NCBI GenBank assembly: GCA_002348605.1 | Contig: DEBQ01000006.1 | Coordinates: forward strand, 78,715-142,714 | Reading direction: 5' to 3' | DNA length: 64,000 bases | Source of the DNA: Candidatus Saccharibacteria bacterium UBA2952 | GTDB taxonomy: Bacteria; Patescibacteriota; Saccharimonadia; Saccharimonadales; Saccharimonadaceae | Shown: positions 3,562-60,061 of the stretch, one piece after another | Layout: every line of letters starts with the position of its first letter | Numbering within the stretch: the first letter of the stretch is position 1 | Made by a program: the position numbers and the translations under genes | The notes under the pieces: generated by a model | Told to the model about the DNA's origin: nothing | Databases searched by the model: none | Seen by the model: the letters and a program-made list of their open reading frames with translations, nothing else

Positions 3562-5433
3562 CTATGCTGCCGGGTGGAGCATTACTTCCTTTGGTAGCAC
3601 CGTATCTTTCAAAATGGTGTTCACGATATCTTCTTCAAGCGTTTCTTCCTTCAGAAGTGCCGCGGCCAACGTTTCAAGGCTGGCCATGTTGTGTGTCAGC
3701 ACTACCTCGGCCCGGTGAGCAGCTTCTTTTATAAGACTCTCGACTTCGCGGTCAATCTCACGTGCCGTGTCATCGCTATACGGACGTTCGTGGGTAATCT
3801 TGTCGAATACCATGCCGCCGTTGTCGTCGTGGAACACCTGGTCACGAAGCCCCTTGCCCATACCTTGTTCGATAATCATATCGCGGGCAATTTCGGTGGC
3901 CTTTCGCAGGTCGCTACCTGCACCGGTCGTAATGCCGTCACTGCCGTACTTAATCTTTTCGGCCACACGTCCACCCATTGCCCGGGCCAAGATATCCTTG
4001 AACTCATATACGTTCGTATAGCTTTTGTCCTCTGGTGGCAAGAACCATGTCACGCCGCCTGTACCACCGCGCGGAATGATTGTCACCTTATGTACCGGGT
4101 CGCTGTCTGGCAGCACGTGGCCAACAATAGCGTGCCCGGCTTCATGGTAGGCGGTCAGCTCTTTTTCTTTGTCGTTCATAACCTTGGCTTTACGTTCTGG
4201 TCCGATGGCGACTTTTTCAAACGCTTCGGTAAGATCCTTGTTCGAAATCATCTTCGAGTTACGACGCGCTGCGATAATGGCAGCTTCGTTGGCAATGTTG
4301 GCCAGGTCGGCACCACTTGAACCGGCTGTCTTAGCGGCAAGTTTGTCCAGGTTGACGGTTGGGTCGGTTGGCTTGTTCTTAAAGTGGACTTTCAAAATCG
4401 CCTCGCGGTCACGTCGCTCTGGCAGCATGATGTTGGTGCGGCGGTCGAACCGTCCCGGACGAAGCAGGGCAGGGTCAAGTACGTCGGCCCGGTTGGTGGC
4501 CGCAAGCACAATGACGTTCGTGCCGGTTTCGAATCCATCCATTTCTACTAGAATCTGGTTCAGGGTCTGTTCGCGTTCGTCGTGTCCGCCACCCATACCG
4601 CTGCCTCGCTTACGACCAACGGCATCGATTTCGTCGATAAAAATAATGGCCGGTGCATTCTTTTTAGCCTTGGCGAACAGGTCGCGCACTCGGCTAGCTC
4701 CGACACCCACGAACATTTCAACGAATTCGGAACCCGAAATACTAAAGAACGGCACATTGGCTTCACCGGCGACAGCGCGGGCCAGCATGGTCTTACCAGT
4801 ACCTGGGCTTCCAACAAGCAGTACGCCCTTTGGAATCTTGGCGCCAAGCTGCTGGTACTTCTTCGGGTGCTTCAAAAAGTCCACGACTTCTTCAAGGTCT
4901 TGCTTGGCGGCATCGTTACCTGCGATATCAGCAAACACCACCTTTTCTTTGTCGAGTCCGTACAGCTTTGCCTTGCTTTTACCAAACCCAAGCGCCTGGT
5001 TGTTCTGGCCCTGCGCCTGACGCATCATGAACAGGAACAGCAGACCGATTAGCACAACTGGCAGCAGAATGCTGGTTGCCGCCCAAATAGCATTACCAGT
5101 CTCGGACGGCTTCTTAATATTAACGTCGACATTGGCGTCTTTGTTTAGCCCCTGCTCGTAAATGCTTGAGTTTGGTTCTTTAGTCGACTTTTCTGTCGCT
5201 TTGTCTTGACCTTTTGGCGTGACTTTCACGTCGTCGCCTTCAATCTCGATTTTTGAAATTTCACCCTTGTTCGCCCGTTCGGTTACGCTCTTGAGCGATA
5301 CCTGCTTCAGGCTTTCCTGTGGAGACGTAAGAGCAATAACAGCAAGCGTCGAAGCGACGAGCACTAGCCAAAACAAGCCAAGCCGCACCATGTTGCTCAT
5401 ACGTTTGCCAGATGAAGGTTTCTTTGCAGCCAT
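3562..5433 (-). CDS. ftsH: ATP-dependent zinc metalloprotease FtsH
   Basis: N-terminal TM segments, Walker A GSPGTGKT, Walker B IIFIDEID, zinc site HEAGHA. Confidence 0.95.
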
Positions 5434-5511
5434 AAAGTTAAATTATCGTCCTTTCTTGTTCAGTCAGAATGCTCAAGTTACTCCTTGAAATCACTCCTAT
5501 AAATATAGCAG

Positions 5512-6342
5512 TCATAAGGGGTGTTTGACAATGAACTCGCGTTTCGTGAACTCGACAAGCGTGTGGCCACCTGGTTCAAACGTACTGCCAGCCTTGGCTG
5601 TCTTGACAGCATGGAGCAACCGTTGTCGTCTCGGACGGTCAAGTGAGAGTGCTTGGCCAGCTAGTGTGGCGCGGAGTAGCTCTAATGCTGACGCGTCATC
5701 AATCATCGTCAAAAAGTAGCGCGACGACGTGGCCAGTCGCTCCGCTTCGCCGTCAATATCGGACGCAAGTCGGGTTTGCCGCTGCCACATATCAATCAGT
5801 TTTTTCTTTGCTTGGTCATCGAGCAAATTCAATCGTTTTCGAACCCGGTTACGAAGGTATTTGTCCGAAGTATTTGTAGCATCTTCGACCCACTCCAGTC
5901 CGTTTGCCACGGCATAGTCGTATAGCTGCTTTTTTGTGCGGTCAAGTAACAGTCTGTCGATTGTAGGGTCGTTCATTACTGCCAGTCCGCGCCACCCTGT
6001 GCCCCGCACCTGATTAATCACGATCGTTTCGAGCACGTCATCCATATGATGCGCTGTCGCAAGTCGCGCGCCGTGTTTTGTGGCCATGCGCCGCAAAAAG
6101 TCGTATCGGGCACTCCGCGCCGTATCTTCATTGGCGCTCGCGCCAAGTTCACCCTGTTCCAGCTCGAATGGAAGGCCGTACCGTTTTGCCAACCCACCCA
6201 CAAAATGGGCGTCGTCATCCGATTCCTGCCGTATACCGTGGTCAAAATGCGCGACCACTAGTTCGTGCTCACCGGAACGCACCAACATATCCAGCAGTGC
6301 CACCGAGTCCACCCCTCCGCTAACCGCAACCACATACTTCAC
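5512..6342 (-). CDS. tilS: tRNA(Ile)-lysidine synthase TilS
   Basis: PP-loop VAVSGGVDS near N-terminus. ORF track extends to 6381, but an in-frame GTG at 6342 sits 7 nt downstream of TATACT (6350-6355), which removes the overlap with the polymerase gene. Confidence 0.85.
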   Translation of the reverse strand: MKYVVAVSGGVDSVALLDMLVRSGEHELVVAHFDHGIRQESDDDAHFVGGLAKRYGLPFELEQGELGASANEDTARSARYDFLRRMATKHGARLATAHHMDDVLETIVINQVRGTGWRGLAVMNDPTIDRLLLDRTKKQLYDYAVANGLEWVEDATNTSDKYLRNRVRKRLNLLDDQAKKKLIDMWQRQTRLASDIDGEAERLATSSRYFLTMIDDASALELLRATLAGQALSLDRPRRQRLLHAVKTAKAGSTFEPGGHTLVEFTKREFIVKHPL

Positions 6343-8883: not shown

Positions 8884-8960
8884 TGGTAGCAGCGGCTGGG
8901 ATTGAACCAGCGACCTTAGGCTTATGAGTCCTACGCTCTAACCAACTGAGCTACGCTGCC
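8884..8960 (-). tRNA. tRNA with CAU anticodon (elongator Met or lysidine-modified Ile2), CCA encoded
   Basis: Cloverleaf GGCAGCG-TA-GCTC..GAGC-..CTCATAA..-GCTGGTTCAATCCCAGC-CGCTGCT-A-CCA. The T-arm resembles E. coli tRNA-Ile2 as I recall it. G1-U72 and A31-G39 are irregular. Confidence 0.85.
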
Positions 8961-13990: not shown

Positions 13991-14068
13991 TGGTTGCGGG
14001 GAGAGGATTTGAACCTCTGACCTCGTGGTTATGAGCCACGCGAGCTGACCAGACTGCTCCACCCCGCG
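13991..14068 (-). tRNA. Initiator tRNA-fMet (CAU), CCA encoded
   Basis: 5' CGCGGGGTGGAGCAG.. and 3' ..CCCCGCAACCA give a C1-A72 mismatch. Near-identical ends to E. coli tRNA-fMet. Only two (29-41, 30-40) of the usual three consecutive G-C pairs next to the anticodon loop are kept. Confidence 0.9.
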
Positions 14069-14617: not shown

Positions 14618-14693
14618 GGGGGTGTAGCTCAGGGGTTAGAGCAGCGGGCTCATAACCTGTTGGTCGATGGTTCGATCCCATCCACCCCCACCA
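14618..14693 (+). tRNA. tRNA with CAU anticodon (elongator Met or Ile2), CCA encoded
   Basis: GGGGGTG-TA-GCTC-AGGGGTTA-GAGC-A-GCGGG-CTCATAA-CCTGT-TGGTC-GATGG-TTCGATC-CCATC-CACCCCC-A-CCA. Confidence 0.9.
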
Positions 14694-44569: not shown

Positions 44570-45274
44570 CTTCACCCATTCTTCAAGCGTTAGCTGCGAC
44601 GGAATTTTTTCAGGCGACAGACCTGCTTTTTCGCGTGGGGTTTTAGCAAAGAACTTCTGCTCGGCAAAGCAGCGTTCAATGAATGTCCGGTACTTCGGCA
44701 TCGCTTCAATCAGCAACAGCGGTTCTTCCCGCAACTTTAGTTCCAACAGCACCGTGTCGACACCCGGCGGCGGTGTAAAGTCAGTCCGTTTTAAGGGCTT
44801 ACGGATACGCGCTGCAAATAGTGGCCCGATCTGTGCGCCGAGCTGCGACGTAAAATGGTCACTGCCCGGTTCTAATTTTCGGGCGAACTGGCGCTGGGCA
44901 ATCAGGTAGATCGCTTTCGGTGGCCGCGGACTTTCGGTAAACTTACGAACAATCGCCGCACTTAGATTGAATGGGATGTTCGAGAATATCTTGTAGGGAA
45001 CTTCTGGCGGGTCAAGCGTTAGAATGTCTTGTTCAAGAATATTTACATTCAATACATTGCCCAAATTAGTTCGGAGCTTTTTGACCGCGCCGGGCTCAAT
45101 TTCTACCGCGATTACTTTTTTGCAGCGGTTTGCCAGTACGCTCGCAATCACGCCGCTGCCGGCGCCAAGATCGTATACCAGATCGTTCTTGCGGATATTA
45201 GAATGACCAATCAGTTCCGCAACAATGTGCGGACTACGTAAAAAGTGCTGGGCGTATTCATGCTCACGGGCCAT
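44543..45274 (-). CDS. rRNA adenine N6-dimethyltransferase family, Erm-like by size and C-terminus
   Basis: 243 aa; AQHFL (QNFL-like), DLGAGSGV SAM loop, NIPFNLS, FTPPPGVDT. The short C-terminal domain fits Erm better than KsgA, but this is not decisive. Confidence 0.7.
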   Translation of the reverse strand: MAREHEYAQHFLRSPHIVAELIGHSNIRKNDLVYDLGAGSGVIASVLANRCKKVIAVEIEPGAVKKLRTNLGNVLNVNILEQDILTLDPPEVPYKIFSNIPFNLSAAIVRKFTESPRPPKAIYLIAQRQFARKLEPGSDHFTSQLGAQIGPLFAARIRKPLKRTDFTPPPGVDTVLLELKLREEPLLLIEAMPKYRTFIERCFAEQKFFAKTPREKAGLSPEKIPSQLTLEEWVKLFSVSTLN

Positions 45275-45309
45275 ATGGTGTCATTATACCTTGTTTTAAG
45301 AGTGATGTA

Positions 45310-45338
45310 TTGACTTTTTATACATTTTGTAGTATAAT
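45310..45338 (+). promoter_or_regulatory. Perfect consensus promoter TTGACT-N17-TATAAT
   Basis: TTGACT 45310-45315 and TATAAT 45333-45338 in an AT-rich stretch immediately upstream of the GC-rich gene. Confidence 0.75.
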
Positions 45339-45381
45339 TATATATTGTAGGTAATTGTCCTTCTCACTCTTAGGAGTTTCG

Positions 45382-45765
45382 TTGCACAAGCTGCAAGAGC
45401 TTCGCGAAGACGCCGGTTTCACCGTCGCCGAGCTTGCTGAGTACACCGGCCTGTCCACCTCGACCATTTATGGCATCGAGAATGGCACGTCCGAGTTCAA
45501 AACGCATGTCGGTGTCGCGCAGATCCTGGCCGAAACGTTCGACTGCGACGTGAACGACATCTTCACATCCGAGGAGCTGTCGCACCGCGGTCGGCCGCCG
45601 CTCACCGGCAAGCCGATTGGTCACGTCACCAGCATGCTCGAAGTCAGCGTCACGAAGAACGGTCAGACTGAGACCTTCCGGCTCTTCCACGAGCTTGAAG
45701 GTAGCGCCTGCGAGCGCTGTCACATCGTCATGCCGCTCACAGGCAAGTGCCCGTTCTGTGACTAA
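45382..45765 (+). CDS. XRE-family HTH regulator with C-terminal CxxC..CxxC zinc-ribbon-like tail
   Basis: TVAELAEYTGLSTSTIYGIENG HTH; C-terminal ACERCH..GKCPFC. TTG start 5 nt after GGAG; strongly G/C-ending codons. Confidence 0.7.
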   Translation: MHKLQELREDAGFTVAELAEYTGLSTSTIYGIENGTSEFKTHVGVAQILAETFDCDVNDIFTSEELSHRGRPPLTGKPIGHVTSMLEVSVTKNGQTETFRLFHELEGSACERCHIVMPLTGKCPFCD

Positions 45766-45795
45766 CCTACTACCCCCGAAAGGAGTTTTCAACCT

Positions 45796-45818
45796 GAGAA
45801 CCCCTTCGGGGGTTTCTC
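45796..45818. terminator. Bidirectional stem-loop terminator between convergent genes
   Basis: GAGAACCCC-TTCG-GGGGTTTCTC followed by ATTT. Confidence 0.75.
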
Positions 45819-45820
45819 AT

Positions 45821-46603
45821 TTAAGCTTCTCGCCGAAGCGCCTCTTGCCCTGCGGTGGCTGCCTCGCTGACGAGCGTAGAATATACGGTCTGACTTAGTT
45901 CCTTTGGGTTGTTGGCAAAATGCTGCATAAGCGGCGAACGCTCATCGGCAAACTGTGCCATCGTTGGGCGTACGCCCAACGCATCAGTCAGATCAAGCGC
46001 TGCCTCGTACTCGGTATGGGCTGCTTGCATGGCAGCTTCTTGCATCTCTACTCTATCCATCCTCATGTTAGCTACGTTATGTTTAATGACGGCCAATGTA
46101 ACCGCGCTGGTAGCGAGTGCCCGGCCTAATTGAATGTCTTTTCGGGCGATCATATTCGGACTTCGGTCTTTAAATACCATTTCCTCGACGACACTTGCCA
46201 GTTCCGCGGTTCGCGACAAGTCAATCTTGGCTTTTTCAATTAGATTTTCTGGGCTTAGGCGTTCGTCCGTTTCAGGGTCTATCATAATAGGCAGTTTTGC
46301 ACGCCTGAACATTACTTCGTCACCAAAATGCTGCGCATAGGTATGGTATGCGCTGCCCATCCCCGTGACGGCAAGTAGTGATGCGGCTTCTTCAATGTCG
46401 CTGTCACTTCCAGCGTCTGCGATATGCCTGAATGTTCGTTCGGCAGTCGCCGTGCCCACCTTTTGTAACCATGGAATCACAACCCCTTGCCTACCTTTAA
46501 ACATGGCTAGGCGTTCGTTGTCCCGGGTCGGTGCTGGAACATAATCCAGACCCTCGGCTGTTTGTACGGTGTTAAATACATATTCTCTTCGCTCTCTACT
46601 CAT
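45821..46603 (-). CDS. Hypothetical protein
   Basis: 260 aa, helical-looking; TATAGT 7 nt upstream of the ATG; no motif recognised. Confidence 0.6.
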   Translation of the reverse strand: MSRERREYVFNTVQTAEGLDYVPAPTRDNERLAMFKGRQGVVIPWLQKVGTATAERTFRHIADAGSDSDIEEAASLLAVTGMGSAYHTYAQHFGDEVMFRRAKLPIMIDPETDERLSPENLIEKAKIDLSRTAELASVVEEMVFKDRSPNMIARKDIQLGRALATSAVTLAVIKHNVANMRMDRVEMQEAAMQAAHTEYEAALDLTDALGVRPTMAQFADERSPLMQHFANNPKELSQTVYSTLVSEAATAGQEALRREA

Positions 46604-46687
46604 ATAAACTACTATACGCTGCTTATTGCATGATGTATAGAAATATTACATCGTATATAAGCATAAGCTTCCTGCTATACTATGGCT

Positions 46688-47071
46688 ATGGATAACGCCG
46701 AACTACTTAACCAGTTGAACCAGCAACAGCAGAATGGCAGCGGTGACCAAACTACCCTGCTGCAAAGCCTGCTTGGCGGAACGGATGGTGGCAGTTTGAT
46801 TCCCGAATCGTTGGTACAAACACTGACCATCAGTCTTATCGCGCTGAACGTGGTCGGTGTACTGTTTCTTATCGCGTATATATTAAGCGGTATTCGCAAA
46901 TGGAAGGTGCAATCGGCCGTGCTTCACATGCGAAAAGACCTAGAAGAAATCAAAGCCCACATGTCGCCTCCCGCTCCTGCCTCACAGCCCGAACCGGTGG
47001 CTACGCAAACCGAAACGCCCGACAAACCGGCTCCAGGCGAACAGTCGAGCAATACCTCTACTACGGTGTGA
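46688..47071 (+). CDS. Hypothetical single-pass membrane protein with Gln-rich N-terminus and Pro-rich C-terminus
   Basis: Second ATG (46688) is 6 nt after TGcTATACT; the track ORF starts at 46682. Confidence 0.55.
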   Translation: MDNAELLNQLNQQQQNGSGDQTTLLQSLLGGTDGGSLIPESLVQTLTISLIALNVVGVLFLIAYILSGIRKWKVQSAVLHMRKDLEEIKAHMSPPAPASQPEPVATQTETPDKPAPGEQSSNTSTTV

Positions 47072-47181
47072 CCCAAGTCATTGCATTGACCTACCCTAAA
47101 GTCGTATAACATAGGTATCCCCAACCACGATTGGGAGTGCTGTACCTACGAGGGTACTGCCAATCTTTAAGGAGGTGCCAT

Positions 47182-47685
47182 ATGAGCGTACCTAACACTT
47201 ACACCACCATTAACGAAACAGGGTGCTGTGCTGTTCCCGATGTCAGTGCTTGGGACAAGCAAGAAGTCACCTTTAAGAACAAACTGTTCATCCGCGGTCA
47301 TACGCGCAGTATCATGTACGTACCGCTGAATATGAGCAAAACTATGACTCTGCTGCAACAGCAGGCATCTGATGCGAACGCCGAAATGCCGCCGCAAGAA
47401 GCCATGATCCTAAGCCGCGAACTGTCGCCGTGGAAGGGCGAGCACCTGTACGCCGTTAGCCACACGGTAGACGGCGCCGACAATGTCGTACTCAGCGGCA
47501 CGTACCTTACGAAAGTATTCGAAGGTCCGTTCAAAGACGCTGGTAAGTGGCACAAGCAGCTAATCGACTATGTGAACGAGCACCGAAAAGCCGTAAAGAA
47601 TACCTACTTCTTTTACACCACGTGCCCGAACTGCGCTAAGCACTACGGTAAAAACTATGTCATTGGCCTTGCGCAAATTGCCTGA
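47182..47685 (+). CDS. Hypothetical protein
   Basis: 167 aa from ATG 47182 with a GGAGG SD; C-terminal CPNC motif. Confidence 0.6.
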   Translation: MSVPNTYTTINETGCCAVPDVSAWDKQEVTFKNKLFIRGHTRSIMYVPLNMSKTMTLLQQQASDANAEMPPQEAMILSRELSPWKGEHLYAVSHTVDGADNVVLSGTYLTKVFEGPFKDAGKWHKQLIDYVNEHRKAVKNTYFFYTTCPNCAKHYGKNYVIGLAQIA

Positions 47686-47698
47686 CAAGGAGGGTGCT

Positions 47699-48229
47699 AT
47701 GAAAACTTTTTGGGAAGTATTAATCACAGTCGTATTGGTATCAGTGGCTGCCACAGGTATGTATTTTTTCCAGCAAAGTACGATCGACGATTTGACTGCC
47801 AAAAACAAATCCCTTACTAGCAATATTCAAAAGCTGAAGGCAGACAGCAATACCAAAAGTACCTCAGGCGGCAACAAGCAAACCGCAACTACGACGTACA
47901 AGTCCGAAAAAGGCGTAAAGGTCACGGTAAATGCACCGACAAGTGGCGCCAAGGTCACTAGCCCGCTCACCGTTACCGGCAGCGTGCCAGGTTCGTGGTC
48001 ATTCGAAGCCCAGTTCACGGTCAGGCTCATAGATGCCCAGGGCAATCTGCTCGCCGACTCACCTGCCAAACTGCAGGGTGACTGGATGACCGATAAACTA
48101 GTGCCGTTTACTGCGAACCTGTCATTCGGCCAAGGTGCTAGCAAGAACGGCACATTAGTATTGCTCAAAGCCAACCCATCGGGTCTGGATGAAAACAACG
48201 ACAGCGTCGTTATTCCTGTTACGTTCTAG
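47699..48229 (+). CDS. Membrane-anchored protein with Gmad2-like Ig domain
   Basis: AAGGAGGG SD; N-terminal TM; VTSPLTVTGSVPGSWSFEAQFTVRLIDAQGNLL pattern. Confidence 0.6.
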   Translation: MKTFWEVLITVVLVSVAATGMYFFQQSTIDDLTAKNKSLTSNIQKLKADSNTKSTSGGNKQTATTTYKSEKGVKVTVNAPTSGAKVTSPLTVTGSVPGSWSFEAQFTVRLIDAQGNLLADSPAKLQGDWMTDKLVPFTANLSFGQGASKNGTLVLLKANPSGLDENNDSVVIPVTF

Positions 48230-48297
48230 CCGGATTTTTCTATTGCATTTGCGCTAAACCGGCGTATAGTTGCATATGTCTCAGGAGAAACTTTAAT

Positions 48298-48537
48298 ATG
48301 TGTAACGAACAAAGCCACCAAACCCTTACCCAACCAGAACACTTCGTACGCCATACCATGGAGGTTGAGCGTGCCTGCGCGTTGACGCGCCGTGGGCTGG
48401 GCTGCGTGTCGCTTGAACAAGCCATGCAAGACGCCCAAGAAGCCCTATCGCTTGCCGATAAAGACGTAGCGCGCGAATGTACCCATATGCTGCAACTTGT
48501 CGTGTCGGGCAACCTACCTGCTGCTGCCAAGTTATAA
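48298..48537 (+). CDS. Hypothetical small protein
   Basis: 79 aa with AGGAG 10 nt upstream of the ATG; competing antisense ORFs look less protein-like. Confidence 0.35.
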   Translation: MCNEQSHQTLTQPEHFVRHTMEVERACALTRRGLGCVSLEQAMQDAQEALSLADKDVARECTHMLQLVVSGNLPAAAKL

Positions 48538-48558
48538 CTCTTCACAAAATTACAGAAA

Positions 48559-48585
48559 TTAGCACTCTTGACATGAGAGTGCTAA
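48559..48585 (+). promoter_or_regulatory. CIRCE operator (HrcA binding site) overlapping the hsp20 promoter
   Basis: Perfect TTAGCACTC-N9-GAGTGCTAA. The N9 spacer contains TTGACA (48568-48573), and TATAAT at 48592-48597 lies 18 nt downstream. Confidence 0.85.
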
Positions 48586-48652
48586 TTTTTCTATAATTAT
48601 AAATAGAAAAGGTTTACCCTTTTCGCTAACAATCAAATGAAAGGAGGTTACT

Positions 48653-49075
48653 ATGAGTAACTTAATCAAGTTTGATCCGTTTGCGGAAATCCAAGCCTTA
48701 CAGAAGCAATTCTTCTCGGACGATTGGTTTTCGCCGATCAAAACAATGCAAATGCCAACTACAGATGTATACACATCTAAGGACGACAAAGAGCTTACCG
48801 TCGAAGCTCACCTGCCAAACTTCGACCAAAAAGACGTCAATATAAGTATCGACAAAGGCAATCTTGTCATCCGCGCCGAGCGTCACGAGCAAGAAAAAGA
48901 CAAGGACAAAAAGTACATCGTACGCGAAAGCTCTTCAAGCTTCTACCGCAGCATTCGCCTGCCCGAAGCCGCCGACGAAAACTCAATAAAGGCCAAAATG
49001 AAAGATGGCGTACTTAAGGTGACTGTGCAATTCAAAGAGTTGCCGAAGCCGAAGCAAATCGCGATTGAAGCGTAA
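48653..49075 (+). CDS. Hsp20/alpha-crystallin small heat-shock protein
   Basis: 140 aa; alpha-crystallin domain with the C-terminal GVLKVTV motif; AAAGGAGG SD. Confidence 0.9.
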   Translation: MSNLIKFDPFAEIQALQKQFFSDDWFSPIKTMQMPTTDVYTSKDDKELTVEAHLPNFDQKDVNISIDKGNLVIRAERHEQEKDKDKKYIVRESSSSFYRSIRLPEAADENSIKAKMKDGVLKVTVQFKELPKPKQIAIEA

Positions 49076-49084
49076 GCTCAAACT

Positions 49085-49109
49085 AAAAACGCCACATGCT
49101 GGCGTTTTT
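49085..49109. terminator. Bidirectional rho-independent terminator
   Basis: AAAAACGCCA-CATGC-TGGCGTTTTT. Confidence 0.85.
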
Positions 49110-49122
49110 AGTTTATGAATAA

Positions 49123-49524
49123 TTACCGAAAAAAGAATTTATCAATAAGAAGGTAAATGTTTGTTAAGGCTAAGAAAAGAACGACTGTTATTACTTCCCA
49201 TTGGTCTTTTACATACACCCATCCGAATCTCTGAATATACTCATCTTCATCGCGTAGGTCACCACCTCGAACATTGTTTAACCCGCGCTCTTTCATCAGT
49301 AATCGAGTTACCTTATTCTCGTATTTTTCAGCATGCTCTTTGCTGATAATTCCCAAATCTTCGGTAAGTTCAATTTCAATAGGCTTATGCCGCATCGTCC
49401 AGTAGGCTCCACGTTTTTTGAGCAAATGTTCTTGAAATCTTTCTTCAGGCGTTTTTGATGTTATGCCAACATAACACTTGCCGTGTTCAAGCTTTAAAAT
49501 ATATAGCCACCACCTCATATTCAT
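49123..49524 (-). CDS. GIY-YIG domain protein with C-terminal hydrophobic helix
   Basis: 133 aa; WWLYILKLEHGKCYVGITSKTPEERFQEH matches the GIY..YIG core; later RGG and an Asn; C-terminal TVVLFLALTNIYLLI. Confidence 0.65.
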   Translation of the reverse strand: MNMRWWLYILKLEHGKCYVGITSKTPEERFQEHLLKKRGAYWTMRHKPIEIELTEDLGIISKEHAEKYENKVTRLLMKERGLNNVRGGDLRDEDEYIQRFGWVYVKDQWEVITVVLFLALTNIYLLIDKFFFR

Positions 49525-49543
49525 TTCTCGCTCTCTATTTATC

Positions 49544-51397
49544 TTATCGTTGCATGCGTTTAAGGTATTTCAGTGTTTCCGGGTTAGTGCAATATATATA
49601 GCAACCTTTCATGCCACGTGTCATTAACACCTTATATATATTGCGCACCAAACGATTAAGTTCCTTCGGGTTGTCTTTCAGCCCTTTCTTCCCAACCTTA
49701 TCGTAATACTTCGAATAGTCTGTATAGAATGTCGATGTTTGGTCATTATACCCAAGGTCATCACCAATTATTACTCCAACGTAGTCAAATTCTAAACCTT
49801 GCGAAGTGTGAATACATCCAACCTGGTTGACCCCCTCAGAATCTATCGCCCATGTAGAGCCAACCTTACGCGAATTCCAGGGCATTGCGAATTCGTATTC
49901 GGGAACAAGTACATCGCTGACTTGCGCGTCAGCATTTCCCTCTTTTTGAGATGTCCACTCCCATGCATAGCCTGCTAAGATACGCGCACTATGACCCTCT
50001 GCATCTTTGCGCTTGATGGCTTTACGCATTTCATTTGGGTCATCAAAGATCTTGAATTCAAAGTCGCCGTCTTCCCAGCCGTCGTAATTGGCTGTTTCGC
50101 GTAGCTGCAATATGTCATCAAGCCAGTTCACGTAGCCTTCTGCTCCTGAACAACGGAATTGGGCAGACAGTTCCATTTCATGGACATCTGCGCCATAAAG
50201 ATTTGCGTAGTATTTGATTTCTTGTACCGAGCCAACGTCGTCAGGCCGGACCATTTGATTATCATCAATAAAAAAGATGGTTGTACGCGCAGCTTTGACG
50301 ACGTCATCAACCTGGTTGAGACCCTGATACATATAAGCGCCGCGCTGCTTGAGTCGGTGCGCCTCGTCCACAATAAGCGCATCGAATTCGTTTGGATTAC
50401 TTTCAACAAAGTTCGATGAGCCCATGAAAAGATTCTTTAGTCGCATGAGAGGCATAGTACCCGCTAGTTTTTTTACGAGTGTTTCGCGAAATGATGCATT
50501 TGGGGCAACGAAGACGGCATTTAGCTCATCGTTAAGGAGCGAATTGAGCAGGTTCAGTGATACGACCGATTTGCCTGTGCCCGGACCGCCTTTGATGATG
50601 ACGACTGACTTGCCTGTCTTTGTATGATTAGCGATGTAGCGAGCTCGCTCGAATGCGACCTTTTGCGCATCGAGAAGTCTATATTCCTCATTGCCTTCGA
50701 ACATTCCCGAGACGTAGTCGACAAGCTTTTTTGACGGTTTGATTTTGCCCGACTCAATCTCATAGAGAATGTCCATACCCTTACCGTATTTGACATATTT
50801 TTTCAGAAATTCTTCAAGCTTTTGTTGGTCGTCGCGCAGAAATAGCGGAGAGCGCTCGACGAGCTGCGCGTAGCGAGAATCCTTAAGTGGCTCGGGTTGC
50901 TTCTCGACATAATTGTGAAGATAAGCGCAAGAGTAAGCAGCTACAGAATCGTTCGCTACGTTTTCGTTGAAATCAGAAATAAAGTCTTTATAGCTTAATG
51001 CTTGATAGCTGGGGTGTGGGACGATGCGGTTTGCACCACCTGTAAACGTCTCGACGACAAGCTCATCACCATCAGCTGCGAGCGCTTCAGACCATTGCTT
51101 CAATTCGACTATGATGAAGTTCTTACCTCCTTGCTCATCCTCGCCAGATACAATGAAATCTACCCGGTAATTCGTGAGAGGGATTTTGTACTCAATCATG
51201 ATGCCGCAATCGTCCGCGATTTCTGCACGCCGGACTACGCGCTCCATCTGAGGTAAAGAATTGGTATACGCACCACGTTCGGCTGGTGGAATTCCTCGTC
51301 CTAGCTTCGAACGAAAAGCTGCTTCAATAGCAGGCAGGATTTTACCTGCATCTACAGTGTCTCGAAATTCTTTTGCCGTAGATTGATAAATTATCAC
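49544..51397 (-). CDS. DUF2075-type P-loop NTPase (SF1 helicase-like) with N-terminal PD-(D/E)xK-like module
   Basis: 617 aa; N-terminal YRVDFIV..IIVELKQW; Walker A GGPGTGKS; Walker B LIVDEAHRL; C-terminal HTSQGLEFDYVGVI and MTRGMKG. Confidence 0.75.
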   Translation of the reverse strand: MIIYQSTAKEFRDTVDAGKILPAIEAAFRSKLGRGIPPAERGAYTNSLPQMERVVRRAEIADDCGIMIEYKIPLTNYRVDFIVSGEDEQGGKNFIIVELKQWSEALAADGDELVVETFTGGANRIVPHPSYQALSYKDFISDFNENVANDSVAAYSCAYLHNYVEKQPEPLKDSRYAQLVERSPLFLRDDQQKLEEFLKKYVKYGKGMDILYEIESGKIKPSKKLVDYVSGMFEGNEEYRLLDAQKVAFERARYIANHTKTGKSVVIIKGGPGTGKSVVSLNLLNSLLNDELNAVFVAPNASFRETLVKKLAGTMPLMRLKNLFMGSSNFVESNPNEFDALIVDEAHRLKQRGAYMYQGLNQVDDVVKAARTTIFFIDDNQMVRPDDVGSVQEIKYYANLYGADVHEMELSAQFRCSGAEGYVNWLDDILQLRETANYDGWEDGDFEFKIFDDPNEMRKAIKRKDAEGHSARILAGYAWEWTSQKEGNADAQVSDVLVPEYEFAMPWNSRKVGSTWAIDSEGVNQVGCIHTSQGLEFDYVGVIIGDDLGYNDQTSTFYTDYSKYYDKVGKKGLKDNPKELNRLVRNIYKVLMTRGMKGCYIYCTNPETLKYLKRMQR

Positions 51398-51756
51398 TCA
51401 GCGAGCTCCGTATACTTTTTATGATTTCCTTTTGATTTTTCTACGGGATACTTAGCAGCGTTTTTTACCATCTTTTTTTCAAATGCATCCACTAAATCGA
51501 TGTCCATTTTATTTGCGAGTAATAACACCCAATAAAAAACATCTGCAAGCTCTTCACCAACTTCATTTTTTTTATTTTTTGCGTGCTCTTCCATTTCTTC
51601 AGTATTTTTCCATTGAAAATGCTCCATAACTTCAGCGGCTTCAAGCGCGAGCGAAATTGATAGGTCTTTTGGATTATGAAACTGATCCCAGTCACGATCA
51701 TCAACATGCTTTCGAATCATTAGTTGTAGGTCTTGCAAAGACTGTGACTGGCTCAT
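51394..51756 (-). CDS. MazG-like nucleotide pyrophosphohydrolase
   Basis: 120 aa; LALEAAEVMEHFQW and EVGEELADVFYWVLLLA metal-binding helices; 4-nt overlap with the DUF2075 gene. Confidence 0.8.
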   Translation of the reverse strand: MSQSQSLQDLQLMIRKHVDDRDWDQFHNPKDLSISLALEAAEVMEHFQWKNTEEMEEHAKNKKNEVGEELADVFYWVLLLANKMDIDLVDAFEKKMVKNAAKYPVEKSKGNHKKYTELAE

Positions 51757-52033
51757 ACGTATCTCCGAGTAAGTTGCGTTATGTATGTAATTATACTCTG
51801 TAATAATTAATCCTCGCAGTTCTGCTGCGTGAAAACATTACCGTTATAAATCCCGCAACACATTTTCGCCTCAGTTAATACGAAAAACATACCGTGAAAA
51901 CTTGGTATGATGCCGCTCGTGTTATATGCTCGTACTTGTGTGTCTGGCGCCTTTGACGGCACTAGATAACACGAATCGCACCAATTAAACACAAACATCC
52001 GACATTATTAATCGGTGCGATATAGGAGAGAAA

Positions 52034-55255: not shown

Positions 55256-55738
55256 ATGAATACCATAGAGCGTCTTCGAATAAATCCCGAAGACCCCTCC
55301 ATACAGCAGATGCTTGCTAGGCAGGCGATGGAAGCGATACGCGCTGAAGTGTATATCAACTACTTACACGCTGTCGACCAGTACCATGGCGGCTGCGATA
55401 CCAATCATCCAGCTGCTATTGAATTGCAAAACGAAAAAAGTGCTTTTGCCCGCTCAGAATATCCTCTAATTCCATATTTTTGGCTACTACACAACGATGA
55501 CGGGTCGATATTCCAGGAAATGCTTGAGCTTAATAAGATAGACCCGAACACCGCCGAGCATCCACTCATTACCCATCGCACCCACCTGAATGGTCTGCAC
55601 ATAACAGACGGCAAGTTACTCGTAGCTATTTTTAACAACACGTCAGAAGAAGTATGGCGTAATGCTCACTTCACCCACAAACAATCCAGCCTATTGTTCG
55701 GACACGCCCGTGAGATTGAAGCCATAGCCAGAGACTAA
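55256..55738 (+). CDS. Hypothetical protein
   Basis: 160 aa; ATG 6 nt after TATAAT; 3' end overlaps the convergent kinase gene by 48 nt. Confidence 0.5.
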   Translation: MNTIERLRINPEDPSIQQMLARQAMEAIRAEVYINYLHAVDQYHGGCDTNHPAAIELQNEKSAFARSEYPLIPYFWLLHNDDGSIFQEMLELNKIDPNTAEHPLITHRTHLNGLHITDGKLLVAIFNNTSEEVWRNAHFTHKQSSLLFGHAREIEAIARD

Positions 55739-56641
55739 CTTCTCAAGGTAATCTTGGATGTATATATGCGAATCCGAGCCGAAGCCAGCGGTCAGCAGCT
55801 TGCCGTGCAAGTCTAGCCAGCCTCTGATAATTATCATATCTCTTAGAGTGCTCGACTCAAGCGCCGAGAGTGAACGCTCCTTCTTATAGTCTGCTAAATA
55901 TTTTTCCGCTTCACCAATACCTGTTGACGTAAAAATATCCCACAATGTTCCAGCTAAGCAAAATATATATGGTGCCGTCGCCACGTCTTCGAAGTCGATC
56001 ACTGCGGCTACGTTATCATCGGAAACAAGAACATTACTGCGTGTAATATCATGGTGTGAAACACCTGACGGAAGGTAAGGCCAAGCACCGACAACGTTTC
56101 GCAGGTGAACCGCAACGACCTCGGATATATCACTGAGGCCCGTATGAACAGAGGGGTTAATTGGAAAATACTTGTAGTCGTTAGTGAGATTGATAGCACT
56201 GTTGGTCGTTACCCCACTAGTGTCCATATTATGTAAACGGGCCTGATAACGAGCAAGCTCGCTCACCCATGCACCTCGATATACGTCCGGATGATGACCG
56301 TCAACCTTATTCATCGAAACCACATACCACTCGTAACCTTGGGCTAGGTGCCTAAATACTTGATGGTTACTTTCCGAAGCGTCTAGGCTCGGAAGTGGTA
56401 TAGAGCATTCTTCAGCCACCCCCATAATCGTTAATTCAAGCGAGATACGTGCCAATTCGTGGTTTCGGTTATAGTGCTTCTGCACCTTTTCGCTCCCATC
56501 AGACAAAGAAACAGAAATGACTGTGTTTTCGATACCGCCGGGAAGTTCGTGCCAAGTTGAGACATCATAATTGAAGAATTGGCCTACCTTCGCGACAAGT
56601 TCGTCACTGATAACCGATTGTGACTCAGCGCTCAGCTTCAT
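55691..56641 (-). CDS. APH/choline-kinase family phosphotransferase
   Basis: 316 aa; catalytic loop SHHDITRSNVLV and the metal-binding IDFED. Confidence 0.75.
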   Translation of the reverse strand: MKLSAESQSVISDELVAKVGQFFNYDVSTWHELPGGIENTVISVSLSDGSEKVQKHYNRNHELARISLELTIMGVAEECSIPLPSLDASESNHQVFRHLAQGYEWYVVSMNKVDGHHPDVYRGAWVSELARYQARLHNMDTSGVTTNSAINLTNDYKYFPINPSVHTGLSDISEVVAVHLRNVVGAWPYLPSGVSHHDITRSNVLVSDDNVAAVIDFEDVATAPYIFCLAGTLWDIFTSTGIGEAEKYLADYKKERSLSALESSTLRDMIIIRGWLDLHGKLLTAGFGSDSHIYIQDYLEKLVSGYGFNLTGVSEQ

Positions 56642-56644
56642 ATA

Positions 56645-57175
56645 CTAGAGGGGCTTGTAGCCGAACCGCTCTAAATCAGGTTCGATATCTGAATAAGACT
56701 TACCTGCTAGATTTCCGCCTGCTATGAAATCCTCGGTTGTAACATCTGCCAGGCAACTTTCTGGCGGATTAAATGCATCTTTTTCTTCCGGTGTATCGAA
56801 TTCAAAGTCGATTAAGACAAGTCCAGCTAAAACACCTTTGAAGACATCAACTTCAGCAGTACGTCCAGCGAGCGGAACCACGTAGCGATCTTTTTCGATA
56901 CGCTTCTGACTTGCAACAGCCAGTGCTTCAAACTCATCCTTCTCCAGGGTTATTGAGTGTTCAGTATGAACCGAGGCATCCTCGCCCTCGACTGGAAGTT
57001 TCTTTGTGATTTGATGCTGATCGCCGTTGCGACGCAGGCGAAGCCTTGAGTGAACAAGGGGGTCTTCTGGAACATAAATATCCAACATTGATGTCGAAGG
57101 TGTGGTTTCAGGGTCAAATGGAATTTTTGAAGCAAGGTAAGTTAATTCAAGTTCCATTTCTTGATTTGCAGCCAT
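56645..57175 (-). CDS. CYTH domain protein
   Basis: N-terminal ELELTYL (ExExK-like, Lys replaced by Thr), RLRLRR, and a C-terminal LIDFEF acidic strand. AAAGGAG SD fits the ATG at 57175. Confidence 0.65.
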   Translation of the reverse strand: MAANQEMELELTYLASKIPFDPETTPSTSMLDIYVPEDPLVHSRLRLRRNGDQHQITKKLPVEGEDASVHTEHSITLEKDEFEALAVASQKRIEKDRYVVPLAGRTAEVDVFKGVLAGLVLIDFEFDTPEEKDAFNPPESCLADVTTEDFIAGGNLAGKSYSDIEPDLERFGYKPL

Positions 57176-57242
57176 ATGATACACTCTCCTTTACATCAAT
57201 AATAATTAATAATATAATATCATACTATTAACATATAATCAA

Positions 57243-58298
57243 ATGAGGCACATGCACCAATTACGCACTATTGTTATAGGGTTAGGAAAGCAAAGTACAG
57301 AGGACCACCTTCCCGCGCTCGGTGAAAGTGAAATGTTCGATCTTAAGGCTGTGGTCGATGTCAATGAACCGATCGCCGAGCAGATTGGAAAACGATATAA
57401 TGTCCCCCACTATACGACAGTCGATGCAGCCCTAAAACATCACGAAAAAGAACTCGATCTTGCAATAATTGCAGTGCCGCATGATGAATATTTGCCAATC
57501 ATTCGTAAGGTCGCAGTACTAGGTATCGATGTCGTCAAGGAAAAACCTTTCGCTACTTCTGTAGATGAAGCGAATGAGCTAAGAAAGCTTTCCAAGCAGC
57601 ATGGCATCATGATTTATGTAACTTTGCAGCGTCGGTTTAACCCGATATTTCTTACATTTAAGCAGTTAGTAAAACGAATCGGGAAAATATATTCCATCGA
57701 AGCGCGCTACACCATGAATATTGGACGATTAGATGAAGGGTGGCGAGCAAAAAAAGAAGTTGCTCATGGCGGCGCACTCATGGATATGGGATACCACTTA
57801 ATAGACCTCCTGGTATGGTATTTTGGCTTGCCTGATACTGTTACATGTCGGTTCTCAAGCGGAAACCGAGAGAATCAAGCATACGACGTAGAAGACACCG
57901 CTCTGATGAATTTTGTTTATAATGATCTTGGTAACGATAATGATCGTGTGCTTGGGAATGCGCTGATATCACGAGTCTACCCTGAAAAAGATGAATCTCT
58001 GGTTGTTTATGGCTCTCGAGGTAGTGTTCGTGTCGAACGAGGACGTGTTAGTCGCCGTGCTATCAGTGGAGAAGAAATTGAAATACTGGAACGTCAAGGT
58101 GCATGGCCATCTGCAGCAATTGACCAGTTAGAGGAATTCGGCAGCCGGATTTTACGCAAACGTAACGGCGATCCAAGTGAAGCAATCGAACACTACGAAC
58201 AAATGGCGCTAGTGCAAGCTGCGTACGACTCAAACCGCGACCACGACACAAAAAACCCGAAAGAATATTTAGAAAGGATGATGCCGAGTGAAAAATAG
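57243..58298 (+). CDS. Gfo/Idh/MocA family NAD(P)-dependent oxidoreductase
   Basis: 351 aa; N-terminal Rossmann fold (IGLGKQS), EKP motif (VVKEKPFA) and a C-terminal alpha/beta domain. Confidence 0.85.
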   Translation: MRHMHQLRTIVIGLGKQSTEDHLPALGESEMFDLKAVVDVNEPIAEQIGKRYNVPHYTTVDAALKHHEKELDLAIIAVPHDEYLPIIRKVAVLGIDVVKEKPFATSVDEANELRKLSKQHGIMIYVTLQRRFNPIFLTFKQLVKRIGKIYSIEARYTMNIGRLDEGWRAKKEVAHGGALMDMGYHLIDLLVWYFGLPDTVTCRFSSGNRENQAYDVEDTALMNFVYNDLGNDNDRVLGNALISRVYPEKDESLVVYGSRGSVRVERGRVSRRAISGEEIEILERQGAWPSAAIDQLEEFGSRILRKRNGDPSEAIEHYEQMALVQAAYDSNRDHDTKNPKEYLERMMPSEK

Positions 58299-59550
58299 TT
58301 TGGCAATACACGGTGGTGAACCAGTACTGACCGAAGGGGGAACATTCGATTGGCCAATTCTTGATAAAGAATCTGAAAAAGCGATACTTGATCAATTGCA
58401 CACATCGATTTCAATTTACGATCGCTCAGGTGTAATCGAAGAATTCGAAGATAAGTTCAAAAACTATCATTCCAGACAATATGGCCTATTGTCCAACTCG
58501 GGGACTTCGGCGATCTTTTCAATGTTTGAGGCTATAAATCTGATTCCTGGCGATGAAGTCGTATGCCCTGTATATACATTCCATGCATCAGTCAGCCCTA
58601 TGATGTACACTGGTGCAATTCCCGTGTTTGCAGACTGTGATGATGAAGGCAATGTCTCGCTTGAATCGATTACAGCAAAGCTTACAGACAAGACAAAAGC
58701 GGTTGTCGTCACGCACATGTGGGGAGTGCCTGCTCGTGATATAGCTAAGATCCGCGAGCTATGTGACGAGCGAGGTCTTTGGCTACTAGAAGACTGTTCG
58801 CATGCTCACGGTGCAAGCATCGATGGAAAAAAGGTCGGATCGTTTGGTCACGCAGCAAGTTGGAGCTTACAAGGACAGAAGATTATTACAGGTGGCGAGG
58901 GCGGCATTATGCTTACCGACGACAGAAAACTGTACCAACGCGCACTTTTACAAGGTCATTACAACAAGCGTCCAAAGCAAGAACTAGATCAAGATGATGA
59001 ACTGCATGAATTTTATCTTACAGGAATGGGCCTTAAGTTACGTGCACACCCAATCGCTACTGCGCTTGCTCTACAGCAATTTAATCATCTTGATGAGTTT
59101 ATTGCGCAAAAGCAGAAGTTTGCGGAACGGCTGAATCAAGAACTTAAAGATATACCTTTTCTTCATCTACCTACTATGTCTAAATCCACACAACATAGCT
59201 GGTACGCATATAACCTTATGTATAATCGTGAAGCAGCGTTCGGCGTAAGTCGTGAAGAATTTGTCGATGCTCTCCTGGCAGAGGGACTCAAAGAAGCCGA
59301 TATTCCGGGCTCGACTGGATTAATAAACAATCTCCCATTATTCACAAACCCTCAAAAAATTCTTCCACGCATGTACACCTCTTCCTTGCCTGCTCAGATG
59401 GATTTTCCTGGTGCTGATTCAATTTACAATGGGATTATAAAGTTTCCGGTGTGGGTTCGTGCAGAAGATGAAGACATCGTTGAGTCATATATAGCCGGCA
59501 TCCGTAAAGTATCACAATATCTATTAAGCAATCACACCCTTAACGCCTAA
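58288..59550 (+). CDS. DegT/DnrJ/EryC1/StrS family PLP-dependent aminotransferase
   Basis: 420 aa; GTSAI, VVVTHMWG and the SLQGQKIITGGEGG Lys region; GTG start overlapping the preceding gene. Confidence 0.85.
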   Translation: MKNSLAIHGGEPVLTEGGTFDWPILDKESEKAILDQLHTSISIYDRSGVIEEFEDKFKNYHSRQYGLLSNSGTSAIFSMFEAINLIPGDEVVCPVYTFHASVSPMMYTGAIPVFADCDDEGNVSLESITAKLTDKTKAVVVTHMWGVPARDIAKIRELCDERGLWLLEDCSHAHGASIDGKKVGSFGHAASWSLQGQKIITGGEGGIMLTDDRKLYQRALLQGHYNKRPKQELDQDDELHEFYLTGMGLKLRAHPIATALALQQFNHLDEFIAQKQKFAERLNQELKDIPFLHLPTMSKSTQHSWYAYNLMYNREAAFGVSREEFVDALLAEGLKEADIPGSTGLINNLPLFTNPQKILPRMYTSSLPAQMDFPGADSIYNGIIKFPVWVRAEDEDIVESYIAGIRKVSQYLLSNHTLNA

Positions 59551-59551
59551 T

Positions 59552-60061
59552 ATGATGTCCCATCCAGATAGCGAAGCACCTGCCGTTGGTCAGCAAGTAA
59601 TAACTGCGTGTGCGTTTATTCATCAGCGCGTCGATGGAATTCCTAAAGTCTTTATGGCACGACGCTCTATGAACAAAAAGTTTCTCCCTGGAGTGTATGA
59701 ACTACCAGGAGGACATGTGGAATTTGGCGAAGATCCAATTGTCGGTCTAAAGCGCGAGGTCCGCGAGGAACTGGCACTGGATATAAACGTCGGCGACCCG
59801 TTCGCTGCATTTACCTACACGAACGAATTGAAAGGCTCGCACTCGATTGAGGTTATCTATTTTGCCACTCTTCCAAATGATACTAACGATATAATTCTTA
59901 ATTTACAGGATCACAGTGAATATGGATGGTTTGCCGAAGACGAGCTTGCTAGTGCCACGACACTAGATAAGAGTCTAGAAGACGACGAGTTCACTGCGAT
60001 CAAGACAGGTTTCAGAATTCTAGCTGGCAGATACGATGTCGCCGAAACAGAATCTGAATAA
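59552..60061 (+). CDS. NUDIX hydrolase
   Basis: Canonical Nudix box GGHVEFGEDPIVGLKREVREELAL. Confidence 0.85.
   Translation: MMSHPDSEAPAVGQQVITACAFIHQRVDGIPKVFMARRSMNKKFLPGVYELPGGHVEFGEDPIVGLKREVREELALDINVGDPFAAFTYTNELKGSHSIEVIYFATLPNDTNDIILNLQDHSEYGWFAEDELASATTLDKSLEDDEFTAIKTGFRILAGRYDVAETESE

Follow-up and report, generated by a model that had tools for sequence, protein, structure and literature searches.

A predicted DCTPP1-like pyrophosphatase and nuclease-helicase gene pair as a candidate immunity module in Saccharibacteria

A 64,000-nucleotide stretch of the genome of Candidatus Saccharibacteria bacterium UBA2952 (contig DEBQ01000006.1, positions 78,715 to 142,714; hereafter the window) carries three co-directional genes on the minus strand at positions 49123-51756. 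Gene 1 (51394-51756) encodes a small MazG-like protein related to the deoxycytidine triphosphate (dCTP) pyrophosphatase DCTPP1, gene 2 (49544-51397) encodes a DUF2075 ATPase joined to a predicted PD-(D/E)xK nuclease, and gene 3 (49123-49524) encodes a GIY-YIG protein. Genes 1 and 2 are a conserved unit, whose linkage runs across phyla and from bacteria to archaea. Gene 3 is independent of this pair, though it is predicted to be co-transcribed with it in the window. With a probability of roughly 0.6, genes 1 and 2 constitute a translationally coupled two-gene module, most likely directed against phages or other mobile DNA, of which gene 3 is not a component. A first-pass annotation, made from the sequence alone, had proposed a defence module of all three genes. 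A defence role stands as the most likely function, but the three-gene unit does not, and the unit of study becomes genes 1 and 2, with gene 3 optional.

The pair is best read as a two-gene form of Nhi-type nuclease-helicase immunity, so far undescribed, in which a second enzyme sanitises nucleotides. Nhi-type proteins are regarded as single-gene systems, and the large subfamily described here, which ranges from candidate-phyla bacteria to haloarchaea, usually comes with a coupled gene for a DCTPP1-like pyrophosphatase. No prior description of a MazG/DUF2075 pairing was found in the literature searched, the coverage of which was incomplete, and two recent discovery papers are silent on it. If the pair is a modification-aware module, a speculative version of this reading, it would bring together in prokaryotes the protein families that mammals have as Schlafen-type helicases and DCTPP1, and it would provide a first physiological role in immunity for bacterial DCTPP1-like enzymes. 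If the coupling is functional, DNA-targeting immunity would be tied to nucleotide-pool sanitation, which would give the MazG domain a testable role.

Linkage of genes 1 and 2 across genomes

The gene order described by the first-pass annotation is reproduced by open reading frame (ORF) calls, including a 4-nucleotide overlap between genes 1 and 2 and a 19-nucleotide gap between genes 2 and 3. Gene 1 (120 amino acids, ATG start) ends inside the start of gene 2 (617 amino acids, GTG start), and the four shared nucleotides read GTGA. The N-terminus predicted for gene 2, MIIYQSTAKEF, agrees with the N-termini of its relatives. A purine-rich run precedes the ATG of gene 3 (133 amino acids), which the Joint Genome Institute (JGI) annotation calls as a 131-amino-acid protein from a second ATG at 49518. 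A metagenome contig from JGI, with a 99.9% match to the window, encodes an identical gene 2 product.

Linkage was assessed in 80 species-representative loci (L007-L086) that carry full-length gene 2 relatives at 41-65% identity. These loci come from the candidate phyla radiation, Bacillota, Gammaproteobacteria, Bacteroidota, Chloroflexota and other groups; their ORFs were called and then searched with iterated profiles of the three window proteins. A MazG-like gene adjoins the gene 2 relative in 45 loci, being directly upstream on the same strand in 38 and downstream in 7. It lies elsewhere within 6 kb in a further 8, which brings the number of linked loci to 53, and is absent from 27. Spacing is tight, with 35 of the 38 upstream cases falling between -4 and +30 nucleotides and 12 loci showing the identical 4-nucleotide overlap. 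Given roughly one MazG gene of this kind in each genome, chance alone should place the two genes side by side in well under one of the loci.

Closer relatives show the same arrangement. The overlapping pair, with its 4-nucleotide overlap, is always kept where gene 2 is 82-89% identical, and these relatives sit in differing chromosomal neighbourhoods. The overlapping pair is also found in a second Saccharibacteria genome (68% identity to gene 2) and in a Gracilibacteria genome (59%). Beyond bacteria, the pair is present on plasmid 1 of the haloarchaeon Halalkalicoccus jeotgali (L143, 3648-7051), where RefSeq names the gene upstream of the DUF2075 gene a nucleotide pyrophosphohydrolase and a gene of the endonuclease/exonuclease/phosphatase family follows. 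It also occurs at 3657-5863 of a 22-kb record deposited as a phage (L144, PP438423.1, "Microcystis phage Mwe-JY31"). Fusions of MazG-like and DUF2075 domains in one polypeptide ("Rosetta stone" proteins) were sought among the best 120 relatives of either protein, and none was seen.

In 16 of the 80 loci, the gene 2 relative is extended by a C-terminal LexA/UmuD-type S24 peptidase domain of about 150-200 amino acids (L007, L008, L012, L034, L043, L044, L047, L049, L056, L057, L064, L069, L077-L079 and L085), a domain that the window gene 2 lacks. The catalytic Ser, within G-D/E/H-S-M, and the catalytic Lys are intact. These fusions also contain AAG or PCG at the LexA/UmuD cleavage-site position, as placed by comparison with E. 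coli LexA. Such features suggest that the nuclease-helicases of those lineages may undergo RecA-stimulated self-cleavage. A MazG-like gene adjoins 14 of the 16 fusions and lies 757 nucleotides from one more.

Predicted activities of the two proteins

The family of gene 2 is very large, as at least 7,914 protein clusters match at E <= 1e-10. It is also present in archaea and is rare in phage records (4 of 50,697). The nearest named relatives of gene 2 are from Candidatus Saccharibacteria, Paceibacteria and Gracilibacteria. The D...ExK motif and the DUF2075 core with GGPGTGKS and DEAH that the first-pass annotation had recognized are both borne out. The ATPase core, which resembles superfamily 1 (SF1) and Schlafen group 3 (SLFN) enzymes, spans residues 263-604 (49586-50611, minus strand), where it matches PF09848 (DUF2075, now SLFN-g3_helicase) in Pfam at 2.9e-94 and contains Walker A GGPGTGKS and DEAH. 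The N-terminal domain, residues 1-215 (50753-51397, minus strand), is a predicted PD-(D/E)xK nuclease with E69, D80, E98 and K100. Neither these four residues nor Walker A and DEAH vary among 23-28 relatives that share 49-100% identity. Pfam finds no domain in gene 2 that would read DNA modifications (SRA, PUA, DUF3427 or similar).

Structural modelling is consistent with the nuclease assignment. The full-length model has a mean predicted local distance difference test (pLDDT) score of 63.5 and is poor in its C-terminal half, and generic P-loop ATPases dominate its Foldseek results, where SLFN11 ranks first (7e-7) and RecD2 and Dda follow, all through the ATPase core. For this reason, residues 1-215 were re-modelled alone with AlphaFold2, which gave a mean pLDDT of 93.1 and a predicted template modelling (TM) score of 0.90. 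In this model, the D...ExK motif positions and the strand order agree with beta2 and beta3. The best Foldseek matches of the N-terminal domain, though weak, are nearly all PD-(D/E)xK nucleases and include Can2, EndoMS/NucS, EcoO109I, SPARDA, Hachiman HamA, BstEII and Shedu. A gene 2 profile searched against PDB sequences found only a P-loop match to SMUBP-2 and did not reach the SLFN proteins. Gene 2 shares the PF09848 ATPase core family with the Schlafen group 3 proteins SLFN5, SLFN11 and SLFN13, whereas the SLFN N-terminus holds the Schlafen core RNase in place of a predicted PD-(D/E)xK nuclease.

The validated defence proteins Nhi and Nhi-like already combine an N-terminal nuclease with a DUF2075 domain as gene 2 does, a parallel overlooked by the first-pass annotation. 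Nhi is SERP2475 of Staphylococcus epidermidis (Bari et al., 2022), and its nuclease or helicase mutants lose immunity (bioRxiv 10.1101/776245). Nhi-like of Bacillus cereus FSL H8-0482 is a verified defence protein of 611 amino acids (Millman et al., 2022; bioRxiv 10.1101/2022.05.11.491447). Phages escape Nhi-like through loss-of-function mutations in their own DNA methylase (bioRxiv 10.1101/2022.08.27.505566). Both proteins are like gene 2 in size and in domain order, in which a PD-(D/E)xK-type nuclease occupies the N-terminus and a DUF2075 SF1-like ATPase comes after it. An hhalign comparison of gene 2 with a partial Nhi-like sequence (399 residues recovered from the paper's supplement) returned a probability of 90.6% (E = 1.3e-6) over 265 colinear columns, of which about 21% are identical. 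Within this alignment, the EY-x-I...R-x-D...E-x-K block of Nhi-like and its Walker A and B motifs line up colinearly with those of gene 2.

Several differences separate gene 2 from these proteins. The C-terminal Glyoxalase/Bleomycin-R domain of Nhi is absent from gene 2, and the C-terminal S24 peptidase found in a fifth of the sampled gene 2 relatives distinguishes them from Nhi and Nhi-like. In addition, Nhi and Nhi-like are described as single-gene systems, whereas most lineages of the gene 2 subfamily carry a coupled DCTPP1-like gene. Gene 2 is thus probably a distant homologue of Nhi and Nhi-like that belongs to a distinct subfamily. The first-pass annotation did not recognize the trio as a named system, and in PADLOC-DB v2.0.0 genes 1 and 3 have no match of any kind, while the matches to gene 2 fall short of its full length. 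The partial matches to gene 2 are to AbiO (6e-18), Nhi (8e-16) and PDC-S41 (5e-15), and the Nhi and AbiO models match its ATPase core.

Gene 1 is an all-alpha MazG-type protein, as the first-pass annotation had stated. Pfam assigns it to PF12643 (MazG-like) at 1.2e-18, with 67.5 bits against a curated cutoff of 27, and many of its relatives carry the JGI label "dCTP diphosphatase." Its relatives of solved structure are 4qgp, an unnamed pyrophosphatase (3.9e-20), and mouse and human DCTPP1 (3.3e-19, full length). DCTPP1, also called RS21-C6, is likewise an all-alpha MazG-like dCTP pyrophosphatase, and its full-length alignment with gene 1 includes a common C-terminal KYT(E/D)L tail. MazG-like and DCTPP1 proteins are classical house-cleaning enzymes (PMC7162842; PMC13291643). 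In contrast to DCTPP1, gene 1 is prokaryotic and operon-linked to a nuclease-helicase.

The DCTPP1 active-site residue list (PMC13291643) was compared with 60 MazG-like proteins linked to DUF2075 genes. The metal ligands E39, E42, E69 and D72 of gene 1 (E63, E66, E95 and D98 in DCTPP1) are present in 58-60 of the 60 homologues. Trp23 and Trp49, which correspond to the base-sandwiching Trp47 and Trp73 of DCTPP1, are conserved, as are the equivalents of DCTPP1 Phe50, Lys121 and Tyr129. Gene 1 is therefore very likely an active deoxynucleoside triphosphate (dNTP) pyrophosphatase with a DCTPP1-type pocket, to judge from residue conservation. In DCTPP1, His38 and His51 form the proposed cytosine selectivity filter (PMC13291643). 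His27 of gene 1, the counterpart of His51, is found in 54 of the 60 homologues. The His38 position (I14 in gene 1, window ~51715-51717) is I, L, V or M in all 60; since it is always aliphatic, the substrate of gene 1 may not be a cytosine nucleotide. The sequence hints that gene 1 has a base preference different from that of DCTPP1.

Gene 3 and the exchangeable cargo

Gene 3 matches PF01541 (GIY-YIG) in Pfam at 5.7e-9, and its residues Y8, Y18, G20, R29, H33, E66, E69, N83 and N84 are invariant in 23 relatives. A C-terminal hydrophobic helix (residues 109-127, Kyte-Doolittle mean 2.06) is likewise kept in 23 relatives, in agreement with the nuclease fold and the membrane helix predicted in the first-pass annotation. 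The gene 3 family comprises about 210 clusters, and 51 loci (L091-L141) that encode gene 3 relatives were gathered through exact-protein look-ups and a metagenome scan. None of these loci contains a MazG-like gene and one contains a DUF2075-like gene. Conversely, a gene 3 relative occurs in one of the 80 gene 2 loci, where it is 3.2 kb away and not adjacent. The proposal that the three genes form one system thus fails the co-occurrence check at gene 3.

The genes tightly coupled upstream of gene 3 relatives are of other kinds. They encode Type III-like Res helicase-endonucleases, DUF2130 proteins, SMC/AAA_15/21 ATPases and HsdR. Further upstream genes encode EcoO109I, GmrSD-N, reverse transcriptase, Pif1 and DUF4357 proteins. 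Gene 3 relatives are repeatedly the last, often overlapping, gene after unrelated defence or restriction genes (Type ISP, Type I, Type III-like, GmrSD, reverse transcriptase, OLD-like and DUF2130).

Two loci clarify the position of gene 3. In a sister genome (L091), the backbone is that of the window and consists of hsp20, a 79-amino-acid gene, Gmad2, a hydrolase, two unnamed genes, a helix-turn-helix regulator and RrnaAD. L091 retains a gene 3 copy with 92% amino-acid identity, and genes 1 and 2 are replaced by a Type ISP restriction-modification enzyme (1,619 amino acids) and a Pif1 helicase. In blastn, the two sequences are 93% identical over 45125-49515, and the homology ends at the second ATG of gene 3. 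The cargo/backbone junction is placed at 49515/49516 from this alignment and the L091 gene content. The L091 contig ends inside the Type ISP gene, and the comparison covers one edge of the cargo. A second locus (L089) shares the histidine-kinase flank of the window; there, the pair is followed by an OLD-like gene, a DUF2130 gene and small genes, with a gene 3 relative last.

The gene content of L091 and L089 indicates that gene 3 resides at the 3' edge of a defence hotspot lying between the histidine-kinase gene and hsp20, where it stays while the genes upstream of it change. Genes 1 and 2 belong to the exchangeable cargo and gene 3 to the conserved backbone. The locus thereby resembles other exchangeable-cargo hotspots, in that the pair fills a site held by a Type ISP enzyme in the sister genome. 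Gene 3 could anchor the hotspot and promote the swapping of defence cassettes. Candidate roles for its product are an accessory effector, a stand-alone defence protein and a cassette-exchange factor.

The slot directly downstream of gene 2 relatives is variable. It is filled by OLD/GajA/AriA-like ATPases (often followed by DUF2130), PLD, HNH or PIN proteins, and elsewhere by McrB-N, Mrr, SIR2, a DNA methylase, UvrD/PD-(D/E)xK or 5'-nucleotidase genes. In the 82-89% identical relatives, the third slot contains an OLD-like ATPase with DUF2130, a PIN nuclease, or a truncated ORF at a contig end. One cassette recurs directly 3' of the pair with overlapping stops and starts, and consists of an OLD/AAA_15-AAA_21 ATPase (sometimes with TOPRIM), a small ORF and DUF2130. 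It is found at L002 7852-11056, L087 6872-10546 and L089 6854-10102, and also in L092 and L093. DUF2130 recurs beside GIY-YIG relatives as well. This cassette may be a separate candidate defence system.

The composition of the block is unusual, though less so than the first-pass annotation held. The description of the block as far more AT-rich than the backbone was overstated, as its guanine-cytosine (GC) content is 43.4% against 50.0% for the window (gene 1, 37%; gene 2, 46%; gene 3, 38%). It is nevertheless close to the lowest-GC 2.6-kb stretch of the 64 kb, since only 3 of 614 sliding windows are lower and all three overlap the block. A mobile-element signature around the cargo, for which integrases were also looked for, was rejected: no tRNA gene lies within 30 kb of the cargo, and the flanking direct or inverted repeats seen around it are just short and at chance level.

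Proposed function and further features of the locus

The comparison shows the domain identities, the conserved catalytic residues, the linkage of genes 1 and 2, the independence of gene 3 and the cargo swap, and from these the anti-phage function of the pair, the DNA that it targets, and what gene 1 acts on and contributes are inferred. Gene 2 would be the effector, a single protein that joins an N-terminal PD-(D/E)xK nuclease to an ATP-driven motor of the SF1 type. The analogy with Nhi and Nhi-like suggests that it loads onto invading or replicating foreign DNA, possibly modified, and degrades it. Translational coupling would keep gene 1 in fixed proportion to gene 2. The gene 1 enzyme may convert non-canonical, probably 5-modified, pyrimidine dNTPs to the deoxynucleoside monophosphate and pyrophosphate. 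This activity could deny modified precursors to phages that need them. Alternatively, it could prevent the host DNA from taking up modified nucleotides set free when phage DNA is degraded, which would spare the host from the nuclease.

The escape of phages from Nhi-like by loss of a methylase makes a link to DNA modification plausible for the pair. It also invites a comparison with Type IV (modification-dependent) restriction. The methylase-loss escape concerns the architecturally similar Nhi-like, and the modification dependence of gene 2 itself is purely an inference. A more specific version of the model is a modification-aware module, in which the nuclease-helicase would act on modified or replicating phage DNA, a DCTPP1-like enzyme would police the modified dNTP pool, either to starve phages with hypermodified DNA or to avert self-targeting through recycled modified nucleotides, and S24-fused effectors would be triggered by RecA. 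This version is speculative, with a modest chance of being correct.

Several observations weigh against the pair being an Nhi-type immunity module. The hhalign probability for Nhi-like is below 95%, BLASTP sees only the P-loop, and the PADLOC Nhi model (8.4e-16) is confined to residues 236-486 of gene 2. The fold matches of the N-terminal domain are weak, the best having E = 0.012 and a TM score of ~0.3. The His38 position of DCTPP1 is not conserved in the gene 1 kin. The 27 gene 2 loci that lack a nearby MazG-like gene are mostly from Bacillaceae and Paenibacillaceae, so the partner is not obligatory. No other recognizable defence gene was seen beside the block in the window. Finally, the S24 fusions of some relatives would also suit a role in DNA damage or repair, as would the house-cleaning character of MazG enzymes.

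A defence pair in which gene 1 has a different role is unlikely. Gene 1 could be an effector that depletes canonical dCTP or dNTPs once a DUF2075 sensor is triggered, or it could regulate in the manner of an antitoxin, by hydrolysing a nucleotide signal or by holding a toxic nuclease-helicase in check. A small upstream gene with a 4-nucleotide overlap is a typical antitoxin-toxin layout, and the altered His38 position suggests a substrate unlike that of DCTPP1. Moreover, depleting dNTPs is an established means of defence (cited in bioRxiv 10.1101/2022.08.27.505566), and MazG is listed by DefensePredictor as a predicted, unvalidated defence domain (PMC13092281). However, the relatives without a MazG-like neighbour argue against an obligatory antitoxin, and gene 2 has its own intact predicted nuclease and motor, so that no separate effector is needed. 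No fusion or direct-interaction evidence was found among the best 120 gene 1 relatives.

A housekeeping or DNA-damage module is improbable. Here, gene 1 would sanitise dNTPs and gene 2 would be a repair nuclease-helicase acting on damaged or stalled replication intermediates, with SOS-like S24 control in some lineages. Such a role would suit the house-cleaning reputation of MazG-like and DCTPP1 enzymes (PMC7162842; PMC13291643), the very wide distribution of the family, archaea included, with its rarity in phage records, and the lack of another defence gene beside the block. The S24 peptidases of the 16 relatives, with intact Ser and Lys and the presumed AAG or PCG cleavage site, would also be in keeping with it. 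Housekeeping is disfavoured by the exchange at the hotspot, by the varying location of the pair and by its defence-type neighbours. The pair is present or absent at one locus between 93%-identical genomes, with a restriction enzyme in its place, and its close relatives are found at different chromosomal positions. Its GC content is also atypical of the backbone, and proteins of the same architecture are validated as anti-phage.

A single system of all three genes, in which MazG alters the nucleotide pool, DUF2075 senses and cuts, and GIY-YIG serves as a second nuclease effector, has in its favour the co-directional, tightly spaced genes between one plausible promoter and one terminator, their shared low GC and the conserved GIY-YIG catalytic-type residues, but it is very improbable given the near absence of gene 3 from gene 2 loci, the absence of gene 1 from the 51 gene 3 loci, the other genes in the third slot of close relatives, and the L091 locus, where gene 3 stands behind Type ISP and Pif1 and homology breaks at its start codon.

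Transcription signals flank the block. The first-pass annotation had placed a promoter and a ribosome-binding site upstream of gene 1, and direct reading of the minus strand finds the exact motifs: a GGAG ribosome-binding site at 51763-51766, 6 nucleotides ahead of the ATG, and a -10-like TATAAT hexamer at 51790-51795. A good -35 element is absent, and a consensus scan made no promoter call because no convincing -35 is present. A sigma-70 promoter upstream of gene 1 was accordingly rejected. The proposed bidirectional terminator is an intrinsic hairpin at 49080-49114, in the convergent gap between gene 3 and hsp20. Its 15-bp arms pair perfectly and are flanked by an A-run and a T-run, one at each end. 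The hairpin folds at -20.7 kcal/mol (z = -7.1), and none of 200 shuffled sequences folds equally well.

Other features of the window lie outside the block. An inverted repeat (48538-48606) is found upstream of hsp20 (48653-49075, plus strand), as is a promoter of the form TTGACA-18-TATAAT at 48568-48597, which matches the consensus at 12 of 12 positions. The sequence TTAGCACTC-N9-GAGTGCTAA at window ~48559-48585, which lies within the inverted repeat and overlaps this promoter, fits the consensus of the CIRCE (controlling inverted repeat of chaperone expression)/HrcA heat-shock operator. A second lower-GC stretch (55256-60061, ~42-47% GC) encodes an APH-family kinase, a CYTH protein, a GFO/IDH/MocA oxidoreductase, a DegT-type aminotransferase and a NUDIX hydrolase, and looks like a sugar- or glycan-modification cluster rather than a defence locus. 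Three tRNA-Met genes with CAT anticodons lie within 6 kb, at 8884-8960, 13991-14068 and 14618-14693.

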